Of a DNA stretch of 64,000 nucleotides, positions 3,495 to 54,816 are shown piece after piece (position 1 is the first letter of the stretch; the number at the start of each line of letters is the position of its first letter). The stretch is from Escherichia coli. Its GTDB lineage: Bacteria > Pseudomonadota > Gammaproteobacteria > Enterobacterales > Enterobacteriaceae. Where the stretch lies: assembly GCF_003790525.1 (NCBI RefSeq), contig NZ_CP033635.1. The stretch is one strand, 5' to 3'. Made by a program: the position numbers and the translations under genes. The notes beneath the pieces are model-generated. The model made no database searches, had not been told where the DNA came from, and was given only the letters and a program-made list of their open reading frames with translations.

Positions 3495-4184
3495 TTAAAA
3501 GCGGGTTGAAAAACGATATCCTGTACCGCGCACGGTCTGCACCATGCGGTCATGCCCGCCGGGCTCCAGTGCTTTACGCAGGCGACGAATGTGGACATCG
3601 ACCGTACGATCTTCCACATACACGTTGGTTCCCCAGACGTGGTTTAACAGCTGCTCGCGGCTGTACACGCGCTCAGGATGCGTCATAAAAAAGTGCAGCA
3701 GTTTAAATTCTGTCGGCCCCATCTCCAGCGGTTCTTCGCCCGCCATCACCCGGTGAGATGTCGGGTCGAGACTGAGCCCCTGCATCTCAATCACCTCTTC
3801 CACCGCCATTGGCGAAATACGGCGCATTACCGCTTTGATTCGCGCCACCAGCTCCTTCGGCGAAAACGGCTTGGTGATATAGTCATCCGCACCGGTTTCA
3901 AGGCCGCGCACGCGATCTTCTTCTTCCCCTCTGGCGGTCAACATCACCACTGGAATATCCCGGGTCATCGACTCGCGCTTGAGGTGTTTGATGAACTGGA
4001 TACCGGAGCCGCCAGGTAACATCCAGTCAAGGAGAATTAAATCCGGCCAGGGTTCATTCAGTTGATTCACAGCACTGTCATAATCTTCCGCTTCGACCGG
4101 CTGAAAGCCATTTTGTTCGAGCACGAAGCAGACCATTTCGCGAATTGGTGCTTCATCTTCTACGACCAGAATACGTCTCGCCAT
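3495..4184 (-). CDS. phoB: Phosphate regulon response regulator PhoB
   Basis: 229-aa [32 protein letters not shown]..., OmpR/PhoB-family receiver plus winged-helix domain. Confidence 0.97.
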
Positions 4185-44179: not shown

Positions 44180-45941
<1,762 letters not shown>

Positions 45942-47771: not shown

Positions 47772-49436
47772 TCAGGCTACCTTTTCGACAGAAACGTCGG
47801 CATCAGGGCGGGTCAGCGTCATCACCGACGCCAGTTTATTCAGGGTCTTGCCCAGGGTTTGCGGAATGGCGGTGGCGGCAACAAAGCGATCCGGGCGCAT
47901 CACCACCAGCGAAGCATTGTGTTGCGCGAACCAGCTACGCAGGCGACCTTGCGTATCGCCCACGCGTAGTACGCCGTCGTGGTTATCCTGTGCGGTATGA
48001 ATTTGCACTTCCGGCACCACCTGAATGAAGCGTGTGCCCAACGCGCGCCACTGCTGGATTTGCTCGTCGCTCATCCCCCACAGTGGATTGCATCCCCAGC
48101 CAATTACCGCGAAGTTCGCGCCGATCGCGTTATCGAGCAGCGTCACGTCGCCGTTTTCCAGCGTGACTTTCGGCTGAATAAACATCTTGCCGACCGGAGA
48201 GTGCTTCGCTTCGCCCTCACGCACCAGCGCACCGCCGTAATATTGCGGCATCGGCTTGAAGCGCATTTCGAGGAAGTAGCGTTTTACTGGCGGCAGATAA
48301 TTCAACAGCCAGGAAACGCCGTCACGTAACGTACCCTGCCAGCGTTTCGGCGGAGCCAGCACGTTGCCCGCCGTCACGGACAGGTCAATCATCGCTTTGG
48401 CGTGATCGCGACGTTCTTGTTGATAGGTATCGAGCAGCGCATCGCGGGCTTTCCCCTGGATAACCAACGCCAGTTTCCATGCGAGGTTAAAGGCGTCGCG
48501 CATACCACTGTTATAGCCCTGCCCCTGCCACACCGGCATGATGTGCGCGGCATCGCCCGCCAGCAGTACGCGATCAATACGAAAACGTTGCGCCAGTCGC
48601 GCGTTGTGGGTGTAGACACGCTGGCGAATCAATTCAACATTGTCCGGATTAGGCAGCACTTTGCTTAACAGCTTGCGCATATTTTGCGGCTCACGCAGCT
48701 GTTCTTCGGTTTCTCCCGGCATCACCATAAATTCAAAGCGACGTACCGCATGAGGCAGCGCGGCAGAAACATACGGGCGCACCGGATCACAACACAAATA
48801 GATATGCGGCGTACTTAACGGATCGTTGGCGATATCTACCACAATCCACTGATTTGGCGCAGTTTTACCTTCAAACGGCACATTCAGGGTGCGACGGACA
48901 AAACTTGCCCCACCATCACAGGCCACCAGCCACTGGGCTTTGACCGTTTCCCGCTGCCCTTCTTCCGTTTTTAGGTGCAAGGTCACTTCGTCATCTTGCT
49001 GGCTGAAGGCCTCCAGCTCGCGGGAAAACAGGCAGCGCACATTCGGAAAACGCGACAATCCTTCCAGCATCACCGCATCGACCTGAGGCTGAATAAAGGC
49101 GTTACGGCGCGGCCAGCCAAATTCATCGGTCATTGGCTGAATATCAGCAAAACAGCGACCTTTTGGGGTGAGAAAACGCATCGCGTGCCACGGCGTAGTG
49201 TGCGGCAGAACATTATCGACCAGGCCAACCGACTGCATGGTGCGCAGCGCCTCGTCATCAATACCAATCGCACGCGGGTAGTCGATCAACTTATCGAGTT
49301 TCTCCACCACCAGCACGTCAATGCCCATCTGGCCGAGATAGTTCGCCATCATCAGCCCGACCGGACCGGCACCAGCGATCGCCACCTGAACGCTATGGTT
49401 AACAGCAGGCTGGATGTCAGGGTGTTGTATTGCCAT
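47772..49436 (-). CDS. mhpA: 3-(3-hydroxyphenyl)propionate/3-hydroxycinnamate hydroxylase (FAD monooxygenase)
   Basis: 554-aa ORF with FAD-binding motif ([18 protein letters not shown]). Confidence 0.95.
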
Positions 49437-49577
49437 TTCAGTACCTCACGACTCGGACAAAATGCCGTTGCGCGCACAGTACAGCGCAACTTGTTTTGTT
49501 AAAAACATGTAAATGATTTTTTATTGTGCGCTCAGTATAGGAAGGGTGTTTTCGGCTACAATCAAAACATGCCCGAA

Positions 49578-49594
49578 TGTGCACCAGGTGCACA
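49578..49594. promoter_or_regulatory. Perfect 17-bp palindrome in the mhpR-mhpA intergenic region; candidate MhpR operator
   Basis: tgtgcacc-a-ggtgcaca, an exact inverted repeat, seen directly; assignment to MhpR is from recalled literature and position. Confidence 0.55.
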
Positions 49595-49626
49595 ACGTTG
49601 TTTTAACTATATAAATGTCAATTAAT

Positions 49627-50460
49627 ATGCAGAACAATGAGCAGACGGAATACAAAACCGTGCGCGGCTTAACCCGCGGTCTAATGTTATTAAATATGTT
49701 AAATAAACTTGACGGCGGTGCCAGCGTCGGGCTGCTGGCGGAACTCAGCGGCCTGCATCGCACCACTGTGCGGCGACTGCTGGAGACGCTGCAGGAAGAG
49801 GGATATGTCCGGCGTAGTCCCTCCGATGATAGTTTCCGTTTGACCATCAAAGTGCGGCAATTAAGCGAAGGATTTCGTGACGAACAGTGGATTTCTGCAC
49901 TGGCTGCCCCACTGCTGGGCGATCTGTTGCGCGAAGTGGTATGGCCGACAGATGTGTCCACGCTGGATGTTGATGCAATGGTGGTACGCGAAACCACCCA
50001 TCGTTTCAGCCGATTATCCTTTCACCGGGCAATGGTCGGGCGACGGTTACCGCTTCTGAAAACCGCCTCGGGCCTGACCTGGCTGGCCTTTTGCCCGGAA
50101 CAAGAACGCAAGGAATTAATCGAGATGTTAGCCTCCCGCCCCGGTGATGACTATCAACTGGCACGAGAACCGTTAAAGCTGGAAGCCATTCTGGCGCGCG
50201 CGCGCAAAGAGGGGTACGGACAGAACTACCGCGGCTGGGATCAGGAGGAGAAGATCGCCTCTATCGCCGTACCGCTGCGCAGTGAACAACGGGTGATTGG
50301 CTGTCTGAATCTGGTGTATATGGCGAGCGCAATGACCATCGAACAGGCAGCGGAAAAGCATCTTCCGGCGCTGCAACGGGTGGCAAAACAGATCGAAGAA
50401 GGGGTTGAATCGCAGGCTATTCTGGTAGCGGGAAGGCGAAGCGGCGTGCATTTACGCTGA
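49627..50460 (+). CDS. mhpR: IclR-family transcriptional activator MhpR
   Basis: ORF 49615-50460; start placed at MQNNEQTEYKTVRGLTRGLMLLN... (277 aa). Confidence 0.9.
   Translation: MQNNEQTEYKTVRGLTRGLMLLNMLNKLDGGASVGLLAELSGLHRTTVRRLLETLQEEGYVRRSPSDDSFRLTIKVRQLSEGFRDEQWISALAAPLLGDLLREVVWPTDVSTLDVDAMVVRETTHRFSRLSFHRAMVGRRLPLLKTASGLTWLAFCPEQERKELIEMLASRPGDDYQLAREPLKLEAILARARKEGYGQNYRGWDQEEKIASIAVPLRSEQRVIGCLNLVYMASAMTIEQAAEKHLPALQRVAKQIEEGVESQAILVAGRRSGVHLR

Positions 50461-51703: not shown

Positions 51704-54816
<3,113 letters not shown>

Follow-up and report, generated by a model that had tools for sequence, protein, structure and literature searches.

The 17-bp palindrome between mhpR and mhpA of Escherichia coli: very probably the MhpR operator in a fully symmetrical allele

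In the lac-mhp region of Escherichia coli the regulatory gene mhpR and mhpA, the first gene of the mhpABCDFE operon, are read divergently, with lacI and lacZ lying beyond mhpR. A perfect palindrome is situated in the 190-bp region that separates the two genes, and the question arises which factor, if any, recognises it and which promoter it serves. A preliminary description of the stretch of DNA analysed here (64,000 nucleotides, referred to as the window) had noted an exact 17-bp palindrome in the mhpR-mhpA divergent region, about 35 bp from the start of mhpR and about 140 bp from that of mhpA. The sequence read at 49578-49594 agrees with this. It is TGTGCACCAGGTGCACA, that is TGTGCACC-A-GGTGCACA, with two fully complementary arms of 8 bp on either side of the middle base A at 49586, and the next base outwards breaks the symmetry. 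The measured distances are also close to those described: 32 nt separate the palindrome from the ATG of mhpR at 49627 (41 nt when counted from its centre) and 141 nt separate it from the ATG of mhpA at 49436. The genes and the parts of the palindrome are as follows.

47772-49436, minus strand: mhpA, first gene of the mhpABCDFE operon (ORF of 554 aa; Pfam FAD_binding_3, E = 1e-84).
49627-50460, plus strand: mhpR, IclR-family regulator (ORF of 277 aa; Pfam HTH_IclR and IclR_C).
49578-49594, no strand assigned: very probable MhpR operator, composed of an outer T, GTGCAC, CAG, GTGCAC and an outer A, centred at 49586; assigned by the published match and by orthologue conservation.
49579-49584, no strand assigned: left GTGCAC hexamer, its six positions 96-100% conserved in 78 loci; presumed contact point of one MhpR winged-helix domain.
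49588-49593, no strand assigned: right GTGCAC hexamer, its six positions likewise 96-100% conserved in the 78 loci.

The names mhpA and mhpR were taken from the RefSeq annotation of the equivalent genes in a K-12 derivative. In MhpR the HTH_IclR domain (PF09339) covers residues 15-64 (E = 2e-14) and the IclR_C domain (PF01614) residues 89-256 (E = 1e-12); the protein thus has the N-terminal HTH_IclR plus the C-terminal IclR effector domain that characterise the IclR family. The solved structures closest to it are those of IclR-family proteins, none of them being of MhpR itself. An in-frame ATG is present four codons before the annotated mhpR start (49615-49626) and would open an ORF of 281 aa (MSINMQNN...), compared with 277 aa in RefSeq; this four-codon N-terminal extension is conserved in neither Citrobacter nor Kluyvera. 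A later start codon was rejected, since HTH_IclR already begins at residue 15. The 190-bp intergenic region is present in 4896 of the 5426 complete E. coli genomes, with 90-100% identity.

Each of the two GTGCAC hexamers is self-complementary; their centres are 9 bp apart and the 3-nt spacer between them (49585-49587) is variable. Because GTGCAC is self-complementary, the operator is an inverted and a direct repeat at once. As a bare palindrome the element is not above chance in the 64 kb: the window has two palindromes whose arms are 8 bp or longer and whose loop does not exceed 1 nt, while 2.35 +/- 1.5 are expected from Markov shuffles. Since the window-wide palindrome counts are not enriched, statistical support was drawn from conservation. 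The GTGCAC-N3-GTGCAC core has a single occurrence in the window, and its near-matches (up to 2 mismatches) are not above chance across the window. Three features of the element are non-random, namely its location in a 190-bp divergent regulatory region, the uniqueness of its core in the window and the retention of this core in orthologous loci. Two palindromes were observed in coding regions as well. The perfect 20-bp palindrome ATTTCGCCAGCTGGCGAAAT at 51839-51858, in the 5' part of lacZ, has the longest arms in the window (10 bp) and is probably coincidental within coding sequence, and GCCACCATTGGAATGGTGGC at 44705-44724, with 9-bp arms and a 2-nt loop, lies within the mhpF coding region.

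The E. coli MhpR operator is tabulated as GGTGCACCTGGTGCACA in Table 1 of PMC8222616, where it is credited to Torres et al. 2003, and this article was the only match of a full-text literature search with the operator string. Read on the minus strand, the window operator has 16 of the 17 bases of GGTGCACCTGGTGCACA, and the sole mismatch is the outermost base. The Pa operator of E. coli K-12 lies at the same locus between the same flanking genes and shares 16 of 17 bases with the window; it has C and not A at 49594, and retains a 15-bp perfect core. K-12 carries TGTGCACCAGGTGCACC at this position, and the reading of this on the mhpA strand is GGTGCACCTGGTGCACA in 17 of 17 bases. Since the K-12 equivalent equals the published sequence, the window feature is the known MhpR operator in a fully symmetrical allele. 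We therefore regard it as nearly certain that the palindrome is the MhpR operator, at which MhpR activates mhpABCDFE from Pa. The preliminary description had taken the palindrome for the operator through which the IclR-family protein MhpR activates this operon, and its reading is borne out by the published operator, with which the conservation described below independently agrees.

The operator of the K-12 Pa promoter is said to have been mapped by footprinting in 2003 by Torres, Porras, Garcia and Diaz (J Biol Chem 278:27575). Their abstract reportedly gives the MhpR-protected region as centred at -58 of Pa, and mutations of the palindrome are reported to abolish both MhpR binding and activation. 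In PMC8753852 MhpR is described as a 3HPP-dependent activator of Pa that is essential for CRP binding. Published experiments have established which sequence is the operator and that it depends on inducer and CRP, and the feature is in this respect already known.

Alignment of the window with K-12 revealed four substitutions across the 190-bp intergenic region, one of them being that at 49594. Among complete E. coli genomes the perfect allele is the commoner one (3256 vs 1512 for the K-12 allele), as counted by allele-specific megablast in which each 28-mer seed was forced to span the variable base. The window allele also agrees with the cross-species majority, in which position 1 is T and position 17 is A. 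Just before the mhpR start codon, at 49612, the window has T and K-12 has G (TATAGAAAT becoming TATATAAAT).

The comparative set contained one genome per species and consisted of 80 loci encoding MhpR relatives with 55-99% identity, from Escherichia, Citrobacter, Kluyvera, Edaphovirga, Shimwellia, Pluralibacter, Pseudomonas, Azotobacter, Azomonas, Marinobacterium, Zobellella, Nitrincola, Oceanospirillum, Vibrio and Xanthobacter. Of the 80 loci, 78 have a site upstream of mhpR that agrees with GTGCAC-N3-GTGCAC in 10 or more of its 12 core bases, and in 69 the agreement is complete. Over these 78 loci the 12 core positions are 96-100% conserved, the commonest base of the 3-nt spacer reaches 62-68%, the outer T is kept in 53 sites (68%) and the outer A in 73%, and the eight positions left of the site show weak conservation (commonest base 36-54%). 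The exact core occurs once per locus of about 6.8 kb, where about 0.0004 occurrences are expected by chance. In Vibrio cincinnatiensis and V. furnissii (L022 and L030; MhpR identity 69-74%) the motif was not found within 420 bp upstream of mhpR, and in these two loci the operator may be elsewhere or may have diverged.

In most loci it is mhpA that faces mhpR across the site; where mhpA is not the neighbour, mhpD or an mhpB-like dioxygenase gene takes this place. In three Marinobacterium loci a second exact copy of the core was observed downstream of mhpR (L041, 2671-2685; L046, 3801-3815; L055, 3823-3837). These second copies precede an mhpB-like dioxygenase gene on the same strand, which suggests two MhpR-controlled transcription units in those genomes. 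An exact core copy is present downstream of mhpR in L080 as well, at 3843-3857. A site that faces the mhp catabolic genes, together with extra copies, is what is expected for an operator travelling with its target operons.

The spacing between the operator and the catabolic promoter was followed in the same manner. Of 79 sequences, 74 have a TTG on the catabolic strand whose first base is exactly 25 nt away from the centre of the operator. In 70 of the 79 the hexamer TATACT or CATACT is found at a distance of 47-49 nt from this centre, which leaves a spacer of 16-18 nt after the TTG. The corresponding elements of the window are the following.

49556-49561, minus strand: putative -35-like hexamer TTGTAG of Pa, at the conserved TTG spacing; invariant in Enterobacteriaceae.
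49534-49539, minus strand: putative -10 hexamer TATACT of Pa, 47 nt from the operator centre; invariant in Enterobacteriaceae.
49564-49567, minus strand: T-tract (AAAA on the plus strand) between the operator and the -35 element; conserved.

The invariance in Enterobacteriaceae was judged over 14 sequences. On the basis of these conserved promoter-like hexamers the start of Pa is predicted near 49527, which would bring the operator centre to about -59. This is a normal position for an upstream activator, and the palindrome would thereby be placed as an activator site of Pa. The T-tract, at positions -22 to -19 from the centre, has an information content of 1.7, 0.8, 1.6 and 2.0 bits, and one may speculate that it is a docking site for the alpha C-terminal domain of RNA polymerase. 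A stringent sigma-70 consensus scan of 49380-49700 returned zero promoters, which is expected and uninformative in case of activator-dependent promoters. In the supplement of Kim et al. 2012 a weak mhpA start, with 9 reads from uninduced cells, is listed 18 nt upstream of the ATG. It corresponds to window position 49454 on the minus strand, approx. 73 nt downstream of the predicted Pa start, and is different from it.

The elements that bear on CRP and on Pr, the promoter of mhpR, lie on the plus strand.

49460-49481, plus strand: best CRP-like site of the region, the top-scoring intergenic 22-mer, about 115 bp from the palindrome.
49497-49505, plus strand: extended -10-like TGtTAAAAA, candidate core of Pr, thirty bases downstream of the CRP-like site.

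In K-12 the allele at 49460-49481 is AAATGTCGTTGCGCGCACAGTA, with 7 of 10 core bases, and it is equalled or beaten by 17 of the 63979 window positions. The T of K-12 at 49465 gives TGTCG-N6-GCACA, and the C of the window makes a weaker match. Judged from its sequence, 49460-49481 is probably the class II CRP site of Pr. The TTGTTAA at 49496-49502 is invariant in the 14 Enterobacteriaceae sequences, and the start of Pr is predicted, with moderate confidence, near 49511-49512, which would place the CRP-like site at -40.5 or -41.5. Manso et al. reportedly placed Pr, in 2011, among the class II CRP promoters, with CRP located at -40.5.

The predicted Pr start agrees with the CRP annotation of mhpRp2 and with its -10 region near -20, both given by the Reg-Seq study (PMC12132413). 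There a CRP activator site is annotated at -59 to -38 of mhpRp2, as a separate CRP site for the mhpR promoter, and a functional -10 region with an ArcA-like motif is placed near -20 of the annotated start. At 49497-49513 the window has TGTTAAaaacaTGTAAA, a direct repeat with a period of 11 bp, similar to an ArcA box, and enrichment of ArcA at the mhpRp2 -10 region is mentioned in the Reg-Seq preprint (PMC12132413). For Pa, a weak candidate CRP site with 6 of 10 core bases, AAATGTCAATTAATATGCAGAA, was found upstream of the operator at 49613-49634. The Reg-Seq, PredCRP, Cappable-seq and Footprint-seq supplements were searched for mhpR CRP coordinates and start sites and yielded none, and a full-text literature search with the two candidate CRP-site strings gave no match.

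Since the preliminary description had also named dual recognition of the palindrome, by CRP as well, as possible because of the TGTGCA half-site, other readings of the element had to be weighed against the operator of MhpR. CRP sites have the form TGTGA-N6-TCACA, with an 8-nt spacing in rare cases. The palindrome has the outer TGTG and CACA in common with them, each of its arms opens with TGTGC (a 4/5 match to the half-site TGTGA), both Pa and Pr are known targets of CRP, and partial overlap of a CRP footprint with the palindrome flank is formally possible, so that the element might be a CRP site, or one shared by CRP and MhpR, that exerts catabolite control. However, TGTGC and GCACA are 7 nt apart and not 6, which rules out the simultaneous use of both halves, C/G stands where CRP prefers A/T, and 5 of the 10 CRP core bases are matched in either register. 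By a crude weighted consensus, different from the RegulonDB matrix, the palindrome scores 10.1 in register 1, a value that 1760 of the 63979 window positions attain; for register 2 the number of such positions is 2637. The lac CRP site comes first in the window by the same scoring with 17.2. Thus neither the spacing nor the score, which does not stand well above background, makes the palindrome a member of the CRP class. What is conserved is GTGCAC and not TGTGA, the outer T and A being present in only 68% and 73% of the orthologous sites, and the best CRP-like site of the region is the one at 49460-49481, which fits the published geometry of Pr. Furthermore, the need of MhpR for CRP at Pa (PMC8753852) points to joint binding and not to competition for one site. 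Recognition of the palindrome by CRP is very unlikely, and this part of the preliminary description is not supported. An RNA hairpin was considered too, either as an intrinsic terminator or as a structure of the mhpR leader. A terminator scan flags 49578-49594 with the plus-strand tail ACGTTGTTTT, the hairpin folds with approx. -9 kcal/mol, and it would lie within the mhpR 5' leader if the predicted Pr start near 49511 holds. Among shuffles, however, this folding energy is nothing unusual (z = -0.98 and -0.69), the stem consists of no more than 7 pairs, the T-run is interrupted and no gene ends upstream of the palindrome on either strand; the element does not qualify as an intrinsic terminator. 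Over the 78 loci the stem keeps its 12 bases as sequence, without compensatory change; what varies is the outermost pair of the stem and the spacer, from which the loop and the top of the stem would be formed. Conservation of a stem as sequence without compensation argues for sequence-specific protein recognition, and a role as RNA hairpin is highly improbable. As regards a chance palindrome without function, the palindrome count does equal the chance expectation (2 vs 2.35), but the element matches the published operator, and 78 of 80 species have kept it at a constant distance from promoter-like elements. The conservation data refute this reading, and its probability is practically negligible.

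Autoregulation of mhpR through the same operator is of another kind, as it is compatible with the activation of Pa. Divergent operators of the IclR family often autoregulate. In 72 of the 78 motif-bearing loci only about 29-57 nt lie between the operator centre and the beginning of the detected mhpR match, and many Pseudomonas matches begin at residue 4-8, the true start codon being probably nearer still. Because the centre is so near the mhpR start, any mhpR promoter must either overlap the operator or lie upstream of it, and with Pr starting near 49511 the operator would be found at about +75 of the mhpR transcript. Against autoregulation, the 2003 abstract of Torres and the 2011 abstract of Manso are said to state that Pr expression is independent of MhpR. 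An autoregulatory role in addition to the activation of Pa seems unlikely to us.

On the mhpR side the operator is accompanied by a further conserved element.

49598-49607, plus strand: conserved block with the consensus TTGnTTTAnA, which in the window reads TTGTTTTAAC; 4 nt from the operator.

Its three initial bases (49598-49600) are T in 87%, T in 96% and G in 88% of the 78 loci, and the TTGnTTTAnA consensus was seen in nearly all lineages, from Escherichia to Pseudomonas and Nitrincola. The TTG to the right of the palindrome was tried as the -35 element of mhpR and rejected, since no more than 20-29 nt separate it from the start codon. The (D/E)-Y-K codons at the N-terminus of mhpR vary synonymously and are therefore translated, which also counts against the -35 reading. 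The block may belong to a proximal promoter in Pseudomonas, or to an extended protein contact.

The MhpR operator was compared with the sites of related regulators. In the supplement of Suvorova and Gelfand 2021 (PMC8222616) a Burkholderia mhpR site is predicted as ATGTGCATagaATGCACAc, at -41 from the gene. It is likewise a TGTGCA-type palindrome of 17-19 bp, approx. 41 nt upstream of mhpR between divergent genes; its hexamers are, however, GTGCAT/ATGCAC instead of GTGCAC/GTGCAC, and it is a prediction and not a footprint. The operators of PcaU, PobR, PcaR, HmgR and TtgV are also short palindromes located between a regulator gene and a divergently read operon, where a winged helix-turn-helix protein binds as dimer or tetramer, and PMC8222616 assigns MhpR to the same motif group as these IclR-family regulators of aromatic catabolism. 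According to the same article PcaU, PobR and HmgR require an extra external direct repeat of the half-site. No conserved third GTGCAC-like element was present around the MhpR operator in the orthologue alignments. The MhpR half-site is itself self-complementary, unlike those of the IclR-family operators listed above.

These observations are consistent with the following course of events. An MhpR dimer, or possibly a higher oligomer, the state on DNA being assumed here, would recognise both GTGCAC hexamers. 3-Hydroxyphenylpropionate and related compounds, as has been published, bind to MhpR and strengthen its hold on the operator, and the bound MhpR activates the transcription of mhpABCDFE from Pa. 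MhpR is also required for the binding of cAMP-CRP at Pa. Thus the complex of MhpR with its operator would help both RNA polymerase and CRP to bind, presumably by contacts of MhpR with RNA polymerase.

Two further ideas are put forward jointly and tentatively, and we think it rather doubtful that they hold together: the perfect allele might bind MhpR more tightly or more symmetrically and thereby change induction, and Pa and Pr might be arranged face-to-face and overlap. Both may already be implicit in the Torres 2003 or Manso 2011 work. If Pr starts at about 49511, transcription of an mhpR leader of approx. 115 nt would pass the core promoter of Pa and then the operator, and if the face-to-face arrangement of Pa and Pr is true, transcriptional interference, or roadblocking by the bound MhpR, would be possible.

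Beyond the confirmation of a textbook-type activator site the significance of the finding is small, and the comparative data add to it modestly. The recognition unit would be a pair of self-complementary GTGCAC hexamers, the distance between the operator and Pa is fixed across distant Gammaproteobacteria and in one Xanthobacter locus as well, and the K-12 reference allele is the rarer, slightly degenerate form of the site. These data could be of use for MhpR/Pa biosensors of 3HPP or phenylpropionate and for the annotation of the mhp regulon in other genomes.
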